Assembly (NCBI RefSeq): GCF_054482525.1
Contig: NZ_CM137006.1
Reading direction: 5' to 3' (one strand)
Length of the DNA: 64,000 bases
Part shown: positions 51,847 through 60,653 of the stretch, piece after piece
How the letters are laid out: every line of letters begins with the position of its first letter
How positions within the stretch are numbered: the stretch's first letter is position 1
Program-made: the position numbers and the translations under genes
The notes under the pieces: generated by a model
Databases searched by the model: none
The model's input: the letters and a program-made list of their open reading frames with translations, nothing else
Told to the model about the DNA's origin: nothing

Positions 51847-52210
51847 ATTATGATAATCACGGAGCAGAATATGCCGGAAGAGAAACTACAGACGCTTTCA
51901 TTGCAGGTCATTAACGGCAGTGAGCTGGAAAGCGGGCGGGCGGCGCGCTGTCTGTTCACACAGCAGGGAAATGTCGGCCATGGCCCCGAATGCCACTGGT
52001 CGGTACAGGATCGTCAGCAGAGCATTCCGGCTCAGGCTTTTACCGTTATCCTGCACGATGGCACATTTTGTCTGCGCCCGCAGACGGCACAACTGTGGCT
52101 GAACCAGGCAAAAGTCACAGCAACATCAGACCTGATACAGCTGCGCCAGGGCGATGAGATCCAGATAGGGCGTCTGATGGTGAGGGTTCATCTGAACCGG
52201 GGAGATATCC

Positions 52211-53549
52211 CATAAGCGCTAACTTAAGGGTTGAACCATCTGAAGAATGCGACGCCTCGGTGCCTCGTTAAGACGATGCCTCGCGTTCTTCAATTGCGTT
52301 TTGTAGGCTGTCAGGGATACTGTCCCACGAATGGCCACCTGTAAGCTCCAGATGACCATTTTTGTTATTCTCCACAACGAGTTAGTTCTTCTTTTCGGAT
52401 CCGGCACTTCTGGGGGGGAAATCCAGCGATGGCTGGATTATGTCGTCAATTAAAAATGCGGCGAGTAGATTAGCAAATATCCACGCTTTCGCGAGTTCAG
52501 GTTCCTTTGCACGCAAAGCATCCAGGTGCAGCAAACTTTTGAGCCGCTTAAAAGCCAGTTCAATTTGCCATCGCAGACGGTAACAATCAGCCACTTGCTC
52601 TGCTGAATATTCATCTTCCGGTAATGATGTTAGCAATAGCACATGGCCCGCTGCTTCCAGCGTTTCCGCCTGAACTACTCGTCCTTTTCGACGATTCTCG
52701 CTGAGCAGTCGGGTTTTACTGATTAATGCTTTTTCGGGAGGAAGTGATACGGCAATGAGACGTGCCGGAAAGGGAGCTCCGGCTTTTTTATTACCTGAAT
52801 TGCCTATCATTACAGTGGTTTCACCGTTCTTACCGCAATCCAGCCCGCGCAGAAAACCCATCATGTCAAAGCGCATTCCTTCTGCAGTTAACCAGCGCAA
52901 TCCTCGCCAGTGAACCCGGACGATATAATCAGCTTCTCCAAAAGCAAGTGAGCGGATACATTCGGGACGCGAACCGAATCCCCGGTCAGCAATGCGTATC
53001 TCGTCTGCCGTTTGCGCAAATCGGTCCAGCCGTTCAGCGTCTCTGCTGTCGGTTAGCTCAAAATCAGTGAACTGACAGGTATGAGGATCATATCCCATAT
53101 GTAGTCGCCATTCAGCGCTGCCGCCCCCGGGCGCACTGATTGCTGTTCCATCGACAAGACGCAATCTCTTTCCGCTTGTACAACCCGTAACTGCGGCGCG
53201 TACAGCAAGTGTTTGTGCGGCAAGTATGCCAAACCAGTCGGCGGCATTCCGCAGCCGCTTCAGGAGAGCCACGTCAGATAATGTTGCAACGTCATGGAGC
53301 TGAGCCCATGCAGTGACTTCACGTAATGACATCCCCCCGGGGCCGTAAGCCAGCCCCAGACGTAGCAGAGTTGCAGCATCACGAATTTCGCGGCGGCGGG
53401 TTAGAGCCCCGGCATTACGTGCCGAAGTATCCAGTTCTTCGGGCTTACCAATATGGGCCAGAATTGCTGACCAGTTATCGTGAGAGTAATTCATCGGCAC
53501 GTTAAATCATATCAGGCGTAATACCACAACCCTTAAGTTAGCGCTTATG
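52211..53549 (-). mobile_element. IS186 (IS4 family) insertion sequence
   Basis: ~23-bp terminal inverted repeats (cataagcgctaacttaagggttg at 52211-52233, exact reverse complement at 53527-53549), flanking 11-12 bp duplication ggagatatccc, target of form GGGG-N6-CCCC. Confidence 0.85.
52382..53494 (-). CDS. IS186 transposase (DDE, IS4 family)
   Basis: ORF 52382..53500; translation from the ATG at 53494 (MNYSHDNWSAILAHIGKPEELDTSARNAGALTRRRE...) matches IS186 transposase as recalled. Confidence 0.85.
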   Translation of the reverse strand: MNYSHDNWSAILAHIGKPEELDTSARNAGALTRRREIRDAATLLRLGLAYGPGGMSLREVTAWAQLHDVATLSDVALLKRLRNAADWFGILAAQTLAVRAAVTGCTSGKRLRLVDGTAISAPGGGSAEWRLHMGYDPHTCQFTDFELTDSRDAERLDRFAQTADEIRIADRGFGSRPECIRSLAFGEADYIVRVHWRGLRWLTAEGMRFDMMGFLRGLDCGKNGETTVMIGNSGNKKAGAPFPARLIAVSLPPEKALISKTRLLSENRRKGRVVQAETLEAAGHVLLLTSLPEDEYSAEQVADCYRLRWQIELAFKRLKSLLHLDALRAKEPELAKAWIFANLLAAFLIDDIIQPSLDFPPRSAGSEKKN

Positions 53550-54496
53550 GGAGATATCCCCCATTACGATGAGGAAATGGCCACTCCCGAAACCATCGTC
53601 ACCAATCGCGATATGCTCACGGATACCCTGCTGTCAACGGAGGGTGCGCCACACTATCCGGGAATGACTCACCGGCATCAGCTTGCAGACACCGTGGTAA
53701 ACGGTTTTTCTGCCGATCCACTCCAGGCACTTCAGTCCGAAAGCCTGATTACCACGGGCGATCCGCTTTCAGGCATTGCGGCTGTCCGGCCATCGGCACC
53801 GCTGTCCGATCCGGCAAGTAATGGGGGGATCAATACGCCGTTTATGAATCTGCCGCCCATTTATGCCAGCCCCGGCGATCGTAATGATGACGTCTCTGTG
53901 GCAGAAATGGCGCAACGCCACCTTGCGGTCACCCCCTTACTGCGCGGTCTCGGCGGTTCGCTTACCGTGAGCAATTCCGACGATGCGGATGATTTTCTGG
54001 AAGAGGCCGGACGCACGTTACAGGCCGCAATAAAAGGTCTGCTCGATTTGCAGCAACAGCGTAACAGCCTCTCAGACAAACATTTGCGCCCGCTGGAAGA
54101 TAACCCGCTGCGCCTGAACATGGATTACGCCACCGCGCTCGACGTGATGTTTGCCGAAGGTAAAAGTCCGGTACATCTGGCGGCTCCCGCCGCTGTCAGT
54201 GAAAGCCTGCGCAATGTCCGCCACCACGAAGAAGCTAACCGGGCAGCGATTGTGGAGTCGCTTCGTGTCCTGCTGGATGCTTTCTCACCACAAAATCTGC
54301 TGCGCCGCTTTGTGCAGTACCGCCGCAGCCATGAACTGCGCCAGCCGCTGGATGATGCCGGAGCATGGCAAATGTACAGCCATTATTACGAAGAACTGGC
54401 CTCCGATCGCCAGCAGGGGTTTGAGATGCTGTTTAACGAGGTCTACGCCCAGGTCTATGACCGGGTGCTTCGTGAAAAACAGCGGGAGCCGGAAGC

Positions 54497-55021
54497 ATGA
54501 ACAGGAAGGCGTTTCTGGCCTGCGTGCTGATGTGCGTCATATTAACCGGCTGCGAAACGGCGAAAAAAATCAGCGAGGTGATCAAAAACCCGGATATCCA
54601 GGTCGGGAGCCTGAAGGAGCAACCTTCGGAAATAACCGTCACCCTGCTGACCGAACCGGACACCAATACCAATGCGGAGGGTGAATCAGCCGCCGTGGAT
54701 GTGCAACTGGTGTACCTGACTGACGACTCAAAATTGCTGGCAGCCGACTATGACCAGATAGCCAGTACGCCGCTACCGGATGTGCTGGGTAAAAACTATA
54801 TCGACCACCAGGATTTCAACCTGTTGCCGGACACCATCAAAACCCTGCCGCCGGTAAAGCTGGATGAGAAAACGCAGTTTATTGGTGTCGTGGCCTATTT
54901 CTCCGATGACCAGGCCACTGAATGGAAACAAATCGAGACGGTGGAAGGAACCGGCCACCATTACCGCCTGCTGGTGCATGTACGTCAAAGCAGCATCGAA
55001 ATGAAAAAAGAGGATGAATAA
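54497..55021 (+). CDS. tssJ: T6SS outer-membrane lipoprotein TssJ
   Basis: 174 aa with lipoprotein signal (ILTGC lipobox). Confidence 0.8.
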   Translation: MNRKAFLACVLMCVILTGCETAKKISEVIKNPDIQVGSLKEQPSEITVTLLTEPDTNTNAEGESAAVDVQLVYLTDDSKLLAADYDQIASTPLPDVLGKNYIDHQDFNLLPDTIKTLPPVKLDEKTQFIGVVAYFSDDQATEWKQIETVEGTGHHYRLLVHVRQSSIEMKKEDE

Positions 55022-56359: not shown

Positions 56360-57121
56360 ATGGATGAGGAGTCACTGTCTCTGCCACCATTTATCGGACA
56401 CGACGAAAAAGGCCAGCGCGACTACCATCTCGCGCTTCGTGGCAACAGCCTGAATCCGATGATCGACGCAGCCACGCCGCTCCTCGGTATGGTGATGCGC
56501 CTTTCAACCATGAACAGCCAGACGATGCCGGAGCATCTTTTTGCTCAGGTGGTGACGGATGTTCAGGCCGTGGAGCAACTGCTTCAGGAGCAGGGCTACG
56601 AACCGGGCGTGATTATCTCGTTTCGCTACATCCTCTGCACGTTTATTGATGAAGCGGCGCTCGGTAACGGCTGGTCGAACAAGAACGAGTGGATCAAGCA
56701 GTCATTGCTGGTCCATTTCCACAACGAAGCCTGGGGTGGAGAGAAAGTTTTCATCCTGCTGGAGCGCCTGATCCGTGAACCCAAACGTTACCAGGATCTG
56801 CTGGAATTTCTCTGGCTCTGTTTTTCTCTGGGATTTCGCGGGCGCTACAAAGTGGCAGCACAGGATCAGGGGGAATTTGAGCAGATCTACCGCCGCCTGT
56901 ACCACGTCCTGCATAAACTACGCGGCGATGCCCCTTTCCCGCTGTTACACAAGGACAAAAAAACCCAGGGCGGGCGTTATCAGCTCATCAGTCGCCTGAC
57001 CATTAAACATATTTTTTGTGGTGGCGTTGTCGTGCTGGCGTTGTTTTACCTGTTCTATCTGTTGCGGCTGGACAGCCAGACGCAGGACATCCTGCACCAG
57101 CTAAACAAATTACTTCGATAA
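56360..57121 (+). CDS. tssL: T6SS membrane complex protein TssL (DotU/IcmH-like)
   Basis: 253 aa with C-terminal TM segment (VVVLALFYLFYLL). Confidence 0.8.
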   Translation: MDEESLSLPPFIGHDEKGQRDYHLALRGNSLNPMIDAATPLLGMVMRLSTMNSQTMPEHLFAQVVTDVQAVEQLLQEQGYEPGVIISFRYILCTFIDEAALGNGWSNKNEWIKQSLLVHFHNEAWGGEKVFILLERLIREPKRYQDLLEFLWLCFSLGFRGRYKVAAQDQGEFEQIYRRLYHVLHKLRGDAPFPLLHKDKKTQGGRYQLISRLTIKHIFCGGVVVLALFYLFYLLRLDSQTQDILHQLNKLLR

Positions 57122-57129
57122 GGACGTTT

Positions 57130-59913
57130 ATGATCCAGATTGATCTTCCCACGCTGGTAAAACGGCTTAACCTGTTCTCCCGCCAGGCGCTGGAGATGGC
57201 CGCCTCTGAATGTATGAGCCAGCAGGCAGCGGAAATTACCGTCAGCCATGTGCTTATTCAGATGCTCGCCATGCCACGCAGCGACCTGCGGGTTATTACC
57301 CGCCAGGGCGATATTGGCATGGAAGAGTTGCGCCAGGCGCTGACGGTGGAGAACTACACAACTGCCCGTTCTGCGGACAGCTACCCGGCATTTTCCCCGA
57401 TGCTGGTTGAGTGGCTGAAAGAGGGCTGGCTGCTGGCGTCGGCTGAGATGCAGCACAGCGAATTGCGTGGCGGCGTGTTGCTGCTGGCCCTGCTGCATTC
57501 GCCGCTGCGTTATATACCGCCTGCTGCCGCCCGGTTGTTGACCGGCATTAACCGTGACCGTCTGCAACAGGACTTTGTACAGTGGACACAGGAGTCGGCG
57601 GAATCAGTCGTGCCGGATGCAGACGGTAAAGTCGCAGGCACACTGACGGACGCTGCTGACACCCTGCTTGCCCGCTACGCCAAAAACATGACCGCAGACG
57701 CCCGTAACGGCAGGCTTGACCCGGTACTGTGCCGCGACCACGAAATCGACCTGATGATCGACATTCTCTGCCGCCGCCGCAAGAACAACCCGGTGGTGGT
57801 GGGCGAAGCAGGCGTGGGTAAAAGTGCCTTAATCGAAGGGCTGGCGCTGCGCATCGTGGCAGGCCAGGTGCCGGACAAACTGAAAAACACCGATATCATG
57901 ACCCTTGACCTGGGCGCATTGCAGGCCGGGGCGTCGGTGAAGGGCGAATTCGAAAAACGCTTCAAGGGGCTGATGGCGGAGGTCATTTCCTCTCCGGTGC
58001 CGGTCATTCTGTTTATTGACGAAGCACATACCCTGATTGGCGCGGGCAACCAGCAGGGCGGGCTGGATATCTCCAACCTGCTCAAACCGGCGCTGGCGCG
58101 CGGCGAACTGAAAACCATCGCCGCCACCACCTGGAGCGAATACAAAAAATACTTCGAGAAAGATGCCGCCCTGTCGCGCCGCTTCCAGCTGGTGAAGGTC
58201 AGCGAACCCAACGCCGCCGAAGCCACCATTATTCTGCGTGGTCTGTCGGCGGTCTATGAACAGTCTCACGGCGTGCTGATTGATGATGACGCCTTGCAGG
58301 CCGCAGCAACGCTGAGCGAACGTTATCTCTCCGGGCGTCAGTTGCCGGACAAAGCCATTGATGTGCTGGATACCGCCTGCGCCCGCGTCGCCATTAACCT
58401 TTCCTCGCCGCCGAAGCAAATCTCGGCGCTGACCACTCTGAGCCACCAGCAGGAGGCGGAAATTCGCCAGCTTGAGCGCGAGCTTCGCATCGGGCTGCGT
58501 ACCAACACCTCACGGATGACCGAGGTGCTGGTGCAGTACGATGAAACGCTGACGGCGCTGGATGAACTGGAAGCGGCCTGGCATCAGCAGCAGGCGCTGG
58601 TCCGGGAGATTATCGCGCTGCGCCAGCAGTTGCTGGGCGTGGCAGAAGACGATGCGGCGTCGTTGCCGGACGCAGATGCCGCGGAGGATACGCCGCCAGA
58701 GTCAGAGTCAGAGTCAGAGTCAGAGTCAGAACAGGATAATACCGGTGCCGTACCGGCTGATGAGGCCGACAGAGAACAGCCGGAAGAGACCGCTGAAACA
58801 GTTTCCCCGGTACAGCGGCTGGCCCAGCTCACTGCCGAACTGGACGCCCTGCATAACGACCGGTTGCTGGTCTCCCCGCACGTCGATAAAAAACAGATTG
58901 CGGCGGTGATTGCCGAATGGACCGGCGTGCCGCTCAACCGCCTGTCGCAGAATGAAATGTCGGTCATCACCGACCTGCCGAAATGGCTGGGCGACACCAT
59001 CAAAGGCCAAGACCTGGCGATTGCCAGCCTGCATAAGCATCTACTGACCGCACGCGCCGACCTGCGTCGTCCGGGACGCCCGCTCGGTGCGTTCCTGCTG
59101 GCTGGCCCCAGCGGTGTGGGTAAAACCGAAACCGTCCTGCAACTGGCAGAGCTGCTCTACGGCGGTCGCCAGTACCTGACCACCATCAATATGTCCGAGT
59201 TCCAGGAGAAACACACCGTCTCGCGGCTGATTGGCTCCCCTCCGGGCTATGTCGGCTATGGCGAAGGCGGCGTACTGACCGAAGCGATCCGCCAGAAACC
59301 CTACTCGGTGGTGCTGCTCGATGAAGTGGAAAAAGCGCACCCGGATGTCCTCAACCTGTTCTACCAGGCGTTCGACAAGGGCGAGATGGCAGACGGCGAA
59401 GGCCGCCTGATTGACTGTAAAAACATCGTTTTCTTCCTCACCTCCAACCTTGGTTATCAGGTGATTGTCGAACACGCCGATGACCCGGAAACCATGCAGG
59501 AAGCCCTCTATCCGGTGCTGGCGGACTTCTTTAAACCTGCCTTGCTGGCGCGCATGGAAGTGGTGCCTTACATGCCGCTGTCGAAAGAGACGCTCGCTAC
59601 CATTATTGCCGGGAAACTGGCCCGCCTGGATAACGTGCTGCGCAGCCGCTTTGGCGCGGACGTGATTATTGAGCCGGAAGTGACGGACGAAATCATGAGC
59701 CGTGTCACCCGCGCTGAAAACGGCGCAAGGATGCTCGAATCGGTCATCGATGGCGACATGCTACCGCCGCTCTCGCTGCTGCTGTTGCAGAAAATGGCGG
59801 CTAACACGGCGATTGCCCGGATTCGGTTGTCGGCGGTGGACGACGCATTTACGGCAGACGTGGAAGATGCTCAGAACGACGAGTCCGTCACAAAGGATGA
59901 AACGGTTTTATGA
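57130..59913 (+). CDS. clpV: T6SS AAA+ ATPase ClpV (TssH)
   Basis: ORF 57016..59913; ATG at 57130 gives a Clp/Hsp100-type protein with two Walker A motifs (GEAGVGKSAL, GPSGVGKTET). Confidence 0.9.
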   Translation: MIQIDLPTLVKRLNLFSRQALEMAASECMSQQAAEITVSHVLIQMLAMPRSDLRVITRQGDIGMEELRQALTVENYTTARSADSYPAFSPMLVEWLKEGWLLASAEMQHSELRGGVLLLALLHSPLRYIPPAAARLLTGINRDRLQQDFVQWTQESAESVVPDADGKVAGTLTDAADTLLARYAKNMTADARNGRLDPVLCRDHEIDLMIDILCRRRKNNPVVVGEAGVGKSALIEGLALRIVAGQVPDKLKNTDIMTLDLGALQAGASVKGEFEKRFKGLMAEVISSPVPVILFIDEAHTLIGAGNQQGGLDISNLLKPALARGELKTIAATTWSEYKKYFEKDAALSRRFQLVKVSEPNAAEATIILRGLSAVYEQSHGVLIDDDALQAAATLSERYLSGRQLPDKAIDVLDTACARVAINLSSPPKQISALTTLSHQQEAEIRQLERELRIGLRTNTSRMTEVLVQYDETLTALDELEAAWHQQQALVREIIALRQQLLGVAEDDAASLPDADAAEDTPPESESESESESEQDNTGAVPADEADREQPEETAETVSPVQRLAQLTAELDALHNDRLLVSPHVDKKQIAAVIAEWTGVPLNRLSQNEMSVITDLPKWLGDTIKGQDLAIASLHKHLLTARADLRRPGRPLGAFLLAGPSGVGKTETVLQLAELLYGGRQYLTTINMSEFQEKHTVSRLIGSPPGYVGYGEGGVLTEAIRQKPYSVVLLDEVEKAHPDVLNLFYQAFDKGEMADGEGRLIDCKNIVFFLTSNLGYQVIVEHADDPETMQEALYPVLADFFKPALLARMEVVPYMPLSKETLATIIAGKLARLDNVLRSRFGADVIIEPEVTDEIMSRVTRAENGARMLESVIDGDMLPPLSLLLLQKMAANTAIARIRLSAVDDAFTADVEDAQNDESVTKDETVL
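58699..58728 (+). repeat. in-frame hexanucleotide tandem repeat (gagtca)x5 encoding (Glu-Ser)5 inside clpV
   Basis: Five exact gagtca units read directly; translated as ESESESESES in the ClpV inter-domain region. Confidence 0.8.
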
Positions 59914-60653
59914 GCAGGTTGCGCGTTTTCCGGCAGACAGGATGGTTTATCGCGGGCCTGATGACGGGCTTACCCGCCACTGCCGCGCCCGCAGAAACAT
60001 CGTCAATGGCCGGTGTGGCGGTCGCCGTCGCCACCACGACCCCGCCGGATGCGACAGCCACGTTACAGGCCATGCAGTCCTGTCGGCGGGAGTCCGCGGC
60101 GCTGGAGCGGCTTGACTGCTATGACCGCCTGCTGGCACCGCTGTCCCCGTCAGGGTTTGACGGGGCGCTGGTCAAAGCCGGTTTTGTGGGCGAGGCCTGG
60201 ACCCGCGCCACAGAGCAGGAAAAACGCCGCGAGGGCAACACCACAGAACTGCTGGTGACGCAGGTGCCGGGGGAGCGCCCGACGGTGGTGATAACCACCC
60301 CGGCTATCGGCCATGTTCCGCCGCGCCCGGTGCTGATGTTCAGTTGCGTGGACAATATCACCCGGATGCAGGTGGCGCTGATGCCCCCTCTGGATGTCCA
60401 TGATATCGCCGTCACTCTGAATGCCGACAGCCGGGCATTGCGTAGCCACTGGTTTGTGCGCGAGAACGGCACCCTGCTGGAGTCCAGCCGGGGGCTGTCC
60501 GGGATTGATGAAATTAAGCAACTGTTCGGCGCAAAAACGCTGACAGTGGATACCGGCGCAGATAACGCCGCAGGAAAGCTGACCTTTAACATTGACGGGC
60601 TGGCAAGGGCGATTGCCCCCCTGCGCGATGCCTGCCACTGGGCGGGAGAATAA
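59910..60653 (+). CDS. T6SS-associated secreted protein (VasI-like by position; family unverified)
   Basis: 247 aa with N-terminal signal-like segment; start overlaps clpV stop; sits between clpV and tssA as VasI does in Vibrio-type clusters. Confidence 0.45.
   Translation: MSRLRVFRQTGWFIAGLMTGLPATAAPAETSSMAGVAVAVATTTPPDATATLQAMQSCRRESAALERLDCYDRLLAPLSPSGFDGALVKAGFVGEAWTRATEQEKRREGNTTELLVTQVPGERPTVVITTPAIGHVPPRPVLMFSCVDNITRMQVALMPPLDVHDIAVTLNADSRALRSHWFVRENGTLLESSRGLSGIDEIKQLFGAKTLTVDTGADNAAGKLTFNIDGLARAIAPLRDACHWAGE

Follow-up and report, generated by a model that had tools for sequence, protein, structure and literature searches.

The array of five GAGTCA units at positions 58699-58728 is most plausibly part of a coding hexanucleotide VNTR in tssH/clpV, a gene of the E. 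coli T6SS island by tRNA-Asp, which gains and loses units by slippage in a length-tolerant loop of the protein and whose variation is largely neutral. We assign this reading a probability of about 0.88. Its variability is not a new idea, as it has already been exploited as a PCR strain-typing marker. Our analysis places this marker in a predicted disordered loop of ClpV, gives a range of 0-33 units across complete genomes and uncovers a side-effect of long alleles on genome annotation.

The Repeat Array and Its Host Gene

The perfect array, which represents the variable core of the VNTR, is located on the plus strand of the window, the 64,000-nucleotide stretch of DNA analysed here. The surrounding ORF (57130-59913, plus strand) encodes 927 aa, and the array is aligned with its codons because 58699 - 57130 = 1569 = 3 × 523. 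It is translated as ESESESESES, corresponding to residues 524-533 of TssH/ClpV in the context ...DTPP(ES)5EQDNTG.... The first-pass annotation, which had described five exact tandem units encoding (ES)5 in ClpV, was accurate on this point. Tandem Repeats Finder reported 58697-58730 with a period of 6, 5.7 copies, 100% matches and a score of 68. Including the degenerate end units, the whole repeat tract covers 58696-58731 (plus strand) and consists, when read in the TCAGAG register, of four perfect units (58702-58725) preceded by an imperfect CCAGAG (58696-58701) and followed by TCAGAA (58726-58731).

A chance origin of the array is excluded. The observed period-6 tract is 34 nt long compared to a mean longest tract of 13.8 nt and a maximum of 18 nt in 200 shuffles of the window, and the analytic expectation for a tract of this length is approximately 1e-12 per window. 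Scanning the window for perfect repeats of period 1-12 that comprise three or more units and span no less than 12 nt yielded one other repeat, a 12-nt tract of period 4 (51932-51943). Two minus-strand ORFs over the repeat (58584-59003 and 58726-59040) were taken as spurious because they lie wholly within a gene with a strong TssH score. An Rfam scan of 57000-60000 gave no credible match, the single hit being a chance match to a human lncRNA model (E = 0.43). Inspection of the unit showed that its six 4-mers share no member with their reverse complements, and no basis was seen for hairpin-driven instability.

The host gene was identified as tssH/clpV, encoding the type VI secretion AAA+ ATPase, by TIGR03345, Pfam and PGAP. 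The ORF scored 1122 bits against the equivalog model TIGR03345 (VI_ClpV1), the cut-off of which is 885, and contains the Pfam domains AAA, AAA_lid_9 (residues 363-453), AAA_2 (650-811) and ClpB_D2-small. The PGAP-annotated gene of E. coli PCN033 is 99.99% identical to the tssH gene of the window with the same coordinates, and the two show 100% identity in the region surrounding the repeat. Comparison with the PCN033 RefSeq record demonstrated 99.97-99.99% identity, so that the window represents a close relative with a distinct sequence. In PCN033, the T6SS cluster around tssH is complete and comprises hcp, vgrG, tssB, tssC, tssE, tssF, tssG, tagH, tssJ, tssK, tssL (icmH), vasI, tssA and tssM, and adjoins tRNA-Asp, dnaQ and rnhA. 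The tssG gene of PCN033 is split by IS200C, a copy that the window does not carry, and tagH is split by IS421 in the window. A functional T6SS has been reported for PCN033 (PMC4882540, PMC6730261).

Copy Number Variation among E. coli Genomes

Among 5,426 complete genomes of E. coli, 2,736 (approximately half) contain the locus. To determine the unit number, the exact primer-to-primer stretch of a published typing assay (58406-58913, 508 bp; see below) was used as an in-silico amplicon query, and a systematic sample spread over the matches was evaluated. It provided 53 full-length amplicons of 481-676 bp, 50 of which had a length of 478 + 6n. One unit and two units were the most frequent alleles with 14 genomes each, followed by five units (four genomes) and three and four units (three genomes each); alleles with 6, 7, 9, 10, 12, 13, 14, 15, 20, 24, 27 and 33 units were represented by one genome each. 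A hand calculation based on the class counts gave a Nei's diversity of approximately 0.84. Two of the three remaining amplicons were 481 bp long, and in the one whose sequence was checked (L013), GAGGCA replaces the unit and a 3-bp deletion is present elsewhere in the amplicon. The third amplicon (579 bp, L005) carries a 1-bp deletion within the array. Overall, the copy number extends from approximately 0 to 33 units across E. coli, with 3-7 units among O157:H7 genomes.

Variation was also evident on a single haplotype. In the best-ranked 60 of the 2,736 locus-positive genomes, the flanks are 100% identical to the window and ten length classes between 11 and 24 units occur: 11 and 12 units in 15 genomes each, 13 and 14 units in nine genomes each, 15, 16 and 18 units in three genomes each, and in addition 19, 23 and 24 units. 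On these common flanks, the window carries five units. The first-pass annotation had suggested a possible strain-variable site that changes by whole units and had proposed to compare the repeat number across clpV alleles. Both the 0-33 range, with 50 of the 53 sampled amplicons in whole-unit steps, and the 11-24 units found on identical flanks support this suggestion; the repeat number is clearly not invariant.

The regular spacing of the amplicons argues against the copy number differences being assembly or sequencing errors around a fixed true number, since two of the three exceptions are accounted for by a 3-bp deletion elsewhere and the third by the loss of 1 bp within the array. Such an artefact is very unlikely, even though long-read assemblies do produce indel errors, the 1-bp deletion in L005 would fit them, and many fragmentary ClpV ORFs from metagenome or draft data stop near the repeat. 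Related strains, for example same-study pairs, agree in length, the array with at most 198 bp is easily spanned by single reads, and independent PCR fragment-sizing studies find multi-allelic variation at the MLVA locus.

Structure of the Alleles

Alleles with 0, 1, 2, 4, 5, 7, 9, 17, 20, 32 and 33 units were checked at the sequence level, and the differences fall within the array. The 0-unit allele reads GAGGCA and encodes the peptide PEAEQ. An O157:H7 allele (L009) has four units in the TCAGAG register and three in the GAGTCA register, resulting in the peptide TQSESESESEQ, compared to TQP(ES)7EQ in allele L008. L009 does not contain the CCAGAG unit, and the end units therefore join in slippage. 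The codons are uniformly GAG TCA in all units and point variants are rare: the 9-unit allele contains one GAGTTA (Ser to Leu), and the 32- and 33-unit alleles contain one synonymous GAATCA each.

The prediction that slippage of a 6-bp unit alters the length without breaking the frame held for the unit variants examined, all of which are in frame. This bears on the idea that the T6SS is switched ON and OFF by frameshifts in the repeat, as in classical phase variation, which in Haemophilus, Neisseria and Campylobacter is driven by coding simple repeats. One frameshifted allele was indeed detected (L005, strain 2014C-3050), which is annotated as a pseudogene; its frameshift, however, results from the 1-bp deletion inside the array, which may be a sequencing error, and not from a change in unit number, and all other alleles examined are intact. 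Because a 6-bp unit that is codon-aligned inside an ORF keeps the frame, unit slippage cannot bring about ON/OFF switching, and we regard this explanation as highly improbable. In another genome (L015, Z1323CEC0019), IS1203 is inserted within the array. The tract thus coincides now and then with gene inactivation, by an insertion element in one genome and by a 1-bp deletion in another.

The locus resembles the contingency loci of the genera named above in that a hypermutable simple repeat is present in a coding sequence related to virulence or competition. In those loci, however, units not divisible by three, or repeats in promoter spacers, switch expression, whereas the 6-bp unit of the window changes the protein length alone.

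Slippage as the Probable Source of Variation

Slipped-strand mispairing at replication would add or remove whole GAGTCA units. E. coli MutS-dependent mismatch repair handles loops of 1-4 nt well, and the 6-nt loops formed by slippage would exceed this size; because of their larger size, slippage events would be expected to build up more rapidly in longer pure arrays. With a unit of two codons, the frame would be kept and only Glu-Ser dipeptides would be gained or lost, the length change falling in an acidic loop, predicted to be disordered, within the middle domain of ClpV, where it is probably largely neutral for ClpV function.

In agreement with a dependence on array length, alleles with 0-2 units look static and those with at least three units are diverse. 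The 1- and 2-unit length classes are uniform across many genomes, and every E. albertii allele among the matches listed encodes 919 aa, that is, one unit. This threshold behaviour together with the identical codons in each unit therefore argues for replication slippage rather than for selection on the peptide.

A similar situation is known from MLVA of E. coli O157:H7 (PulseNet type), which relies on the intragenic hexanucleotide VNTRs O157-3, -9, -17, -19, -25 and -37. The repeat in tssH shares with these loci the 6-bp unit in or near ORFs, the in-frame slippage, the use as an epidemiological marker, and the variation inside one clone, here the 3-7 units among O157:H7 genomes.

Location of the Repeat in the ClpV Middle Domain

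An AlphaFold2 model calculated from 118 representatives of the ClpV family (mean pLDDT 91, pTM 0.79) predicts helices at residues 429-454, 460-501 and 560-575, which fall between AAA_lid_9 and AAA_2, and a coil at 512-559 with pLDDT below 50 at 518-551. Between the second and the third of these helices, the middle domain contains an acidic loop of low complexity (residues ~502-559; 58633-58806, plus strand), which is predicted to be disordered and has (ES)5 in its centre. ClpV aligns to T. thermophilus ClpB (1qvr) and E. coli ClpB with a single interruption, residues 502-563 of the query. These remain unaligned inside the coiled-coil middle domain, between positions 470 and 497 of T. thermophilus ClpB, and the loop has no counterpart in ClpB. 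The assignment of the repeat to an inter-domain region by the first-pass annotation was thus roughly correct; more precisely, the ClpB alignment and the AlphaFold2 model put the loop inside the middle domain, a domain that is in turn inserted into AAA-1.

Across the family, the equivalent place appears to tolerate considerable length changes, as the loop-bearing stretch corresponding to residues 495-585 comprises 26-96 residues in the 118 representatives (median 44; 91 in the window) and has no conserved motif. Salmonella and Klebsiella orthologues carry an unrelated acidic low-complexity sequence there, hypervariable in both length and sequence. This cross-family comparison is based on a representative library, the top 120 matches of the full-length protein search being from Escherichia alone; a search with a 222-aa segment yielded mostly fragments among its matches. 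Taken from these models and alignments, the repeat site is better described as a predicted disordered, length-tolerant loop within a ClpB-type coiled-coil middle domain.

ClpV shares with ClpB/Hsp104 the M domain, a coiled-coil insertion in the AAA-1 small subdomain, and the repeat is located inside this insertion. In ClpB, the motif-2 region is structured and part of DnaK-dependent regulation, and the middle domain of ClpB/Hsp104 in general is a regulatory element. Unlike T. thermophilus ClpB, which is structured at residues ~471-496 (motif-2 region), ClpV has an acidic loop of ~55 residues predicted to be disordered.

The location in a potentially regulatory domain raises the question of an adaptive role, in which a longer or shorter acidic (ES)n loop modulates the ATPase, sheath recycling or a partner interaction, the repeat being a graded and reversible T6SS contingency locus under selection. 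Intact genes can maintain very long, nearly pure arrays, the largest with 33 units (66 residues), and the enterobacterial orthologues retain an acidic insert at this place despite their differing sequence, both of which would agree with such a role. Nevertheless, the family-wide variation of the stretch in length and the missing motif speak against it, and the same codons in each unit point to recent mutation rather than to selection on the peptide. Moreover, the length distribution on the single haplotype is broad and unimodal-to-tailed, as predicted by microsatellite drift, and our literature search found no paper tying the repeat to a function. With tagH split in the window and tssG in PCN033, selection on fine-tuning is also not obvious. 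We therefore consider adaptive tuning unlikely.

In its most explicit form, the disordered acidic loop, placed at the tip of the middle domain, would quantitatively tune ClpV activity or partner interaction and thereby T6SS firing or recycling, acting as a hypermutable, graded and reversible rheostat. If true, the repeat would set the level of interbacterial aggression in lineages of E. coli; we judge this quite unlikely. Slippage in a length-tolerant loop is the preferred explanation, and variation of the repeat is probably near-neutral for ClpV, in keeping with its role in PCR-based strain typing. The repeat thus appears as an ordinary, neutral-looking coding microsatellite, which would gain greater weight only if the loop length affects ClpV function.

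Identity with a Published MLVA Marker

GECM-10, a generic E. coli MLVA, was reportedly established by Lobersli, Haugum and Lindstedt in 2012 with two added loci, CVN016 and CVN017. The window contains exact matches to a primer pair of this 10-locus generic scheme, CGCCGCCGAAGCAAATCTC at 58406-58424 (plus strand) and GCAATCACCGCCGCAATCTGTT at 58892-58913 (minus strand), printed as CVN017 in the primer tables (PMC8143711, PMC8261245). The amplicon of the window (58406-58913) is 508 bp, that is, 478 + 5 × 6. The scheme has been used in several studies (PMC3877011, PMC5217547, PMC3519732, PMC8143711, PMC8261245).

With respect to the name of the locus, the published data point both ways: offsets of 478 for CVN016 and 202 for CVN017 are given, though the primer table of the same paper labels the pair matching the window as CVN017 (PMC8143711). 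The 'zero-repeat' product of CVN016 is stated to be 475 bp (PMC3877011), similar in size to the amplicons of 481-484 bp from divergent alleles, in which the primer sites contain 2 + 1 mismatches. CVN016 is described as highly polymorphic with many null alleles, with 1-15 repeats (PMC3519732) or 10-20 or more (PMC3407997); in the MLVA papers overall it reaches 20-41 repeats with frequent null alleles, and CVN017 is absent or nearly monomorphic. For the other primer pair of the two, the reverse primer corresponds to the 5' end of a tRNA-Ser, and the forward primer was not found in the 900 bp around the tRNA-Ser copy by ghrA, the single copy inspected. Because the 478 offset, the null product of 475 bp and the marked polymorphism fit CVN016, the window repeat, one of the two loci added in GECM-10, is most likely CVN016.

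The GECM-10 locus and the window repeat are the identical locus, with a 6-bp unit, exact primers and multiple alleles of up to tens of repeats, and the null alleles of the scheme match the lack of the locus in approximately half of the E. coli genomes. A search for literature on a VNTR in clpV or the T6SS of E. coli returned no relevant paper. Likewise, no statement placing the marker in tssH or in the ClpV loop was found in the literature covered, which did not extend to Lobersli et al. 2012 itself.

Naming of Long Alleles in Genome Annotation

Among the genomes sampled, the product name 'AAA family ATPase' replaces TssH for every allele of 16 or more units and for most alleles of 14-15 units. 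Against TIGR03345, alleles with 17 and 32 units obtained approximately 1120 bits in total, with the match split in two stretches. It is due to this splitting that long alleles (about 14-17 or more units) are misnamed, and T6SS surveys can consequently undercount intact clusters.

Product names and length of the tssH array

In the NCBI annotation, the product name of tssH/clpV was found to follow allele length, as short alleles, with few GAGTCA units, carry the name 'tssH' and long alleles, such as L002 and L003, are named 'AAA family ATPase'. On the haplotype of the PCN033 type the name switches to 'AAA family ATPase' at 14 units or more, and two alleles on other haplotypes with 14 and 15 units are still named tssH. 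Analysis by hmmscan demonstrated that in the long alleles the match to the VI_ClpV1 profile TIGR03345 is broken into two stretches; nevertheless, the whole protein still scores approximately 1120 bits against a cut-off of 885 bits. Intact tssH genes with long alleles may thus escape T6SS surveys that are based on product names.

The array was also the site of two gene disruptions. In strain Z1323CEC0019 (L015, NZ_CP148401.1), tssH is split by IS1203 (IS3 family) within the GAGTCA array, and in strain 2014C-3050 (L005, NZ_CP027472.1) the gene is frameshifted by a 1-bp deletion within the array, GAGTCAGGTCAGAG, which may be genuine or a sequencing error.

A CRISPR spacer matching tssH

A segment of 32 nt in tssH (58543-58574), located approximately 125 nt upstream of the repeat, was identical in 32 of 32 nt to a spacer of a type I-E CRISPR array in E. 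coli MS 21-1 (NZ_CP146670.1, about 1137566-1137599). Because of this identity, the T6SS island of other E. coli is matched by a spacer of one E. coli. In searches with the tssH segment, the spacer was the sole match in MS 21-1. The protospacer-adjacent motif would read GCC in the window, which differs from AAG, the canonical motif of type I-E systems.

Insertion sequences in the T6SS cluster

In the window, the T6SS-associated FHA-domain gene tagH is interrupted by IS421 (IS4 family, encoding a 372-aa transposase; about 52212-53548, minus strand), leaving fragments at 51850-52215 and 53547-54500 and a target duplication of approximately 12 bp. The identical insertion was present in only 7 of 5,426 complete E. 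coli genomes, including strains that differ in their clpV allele.

Outside IS differences, the window is 99.97-99.99% identical to the PCN033 record (L001, NZ_CP006632.1). IS200C is absent from tssG in the window, whereas according to the RefSeq annotation it splits this gene in PCN033, where one vgrG is additionally labelled frameshifted. The window therefore represents a different assembly from the PCN033 record. These annotated tssG and vgrG defects contrast with the reported functionality of the PCN033 T6SS (PMC4882540, PMC6730261).
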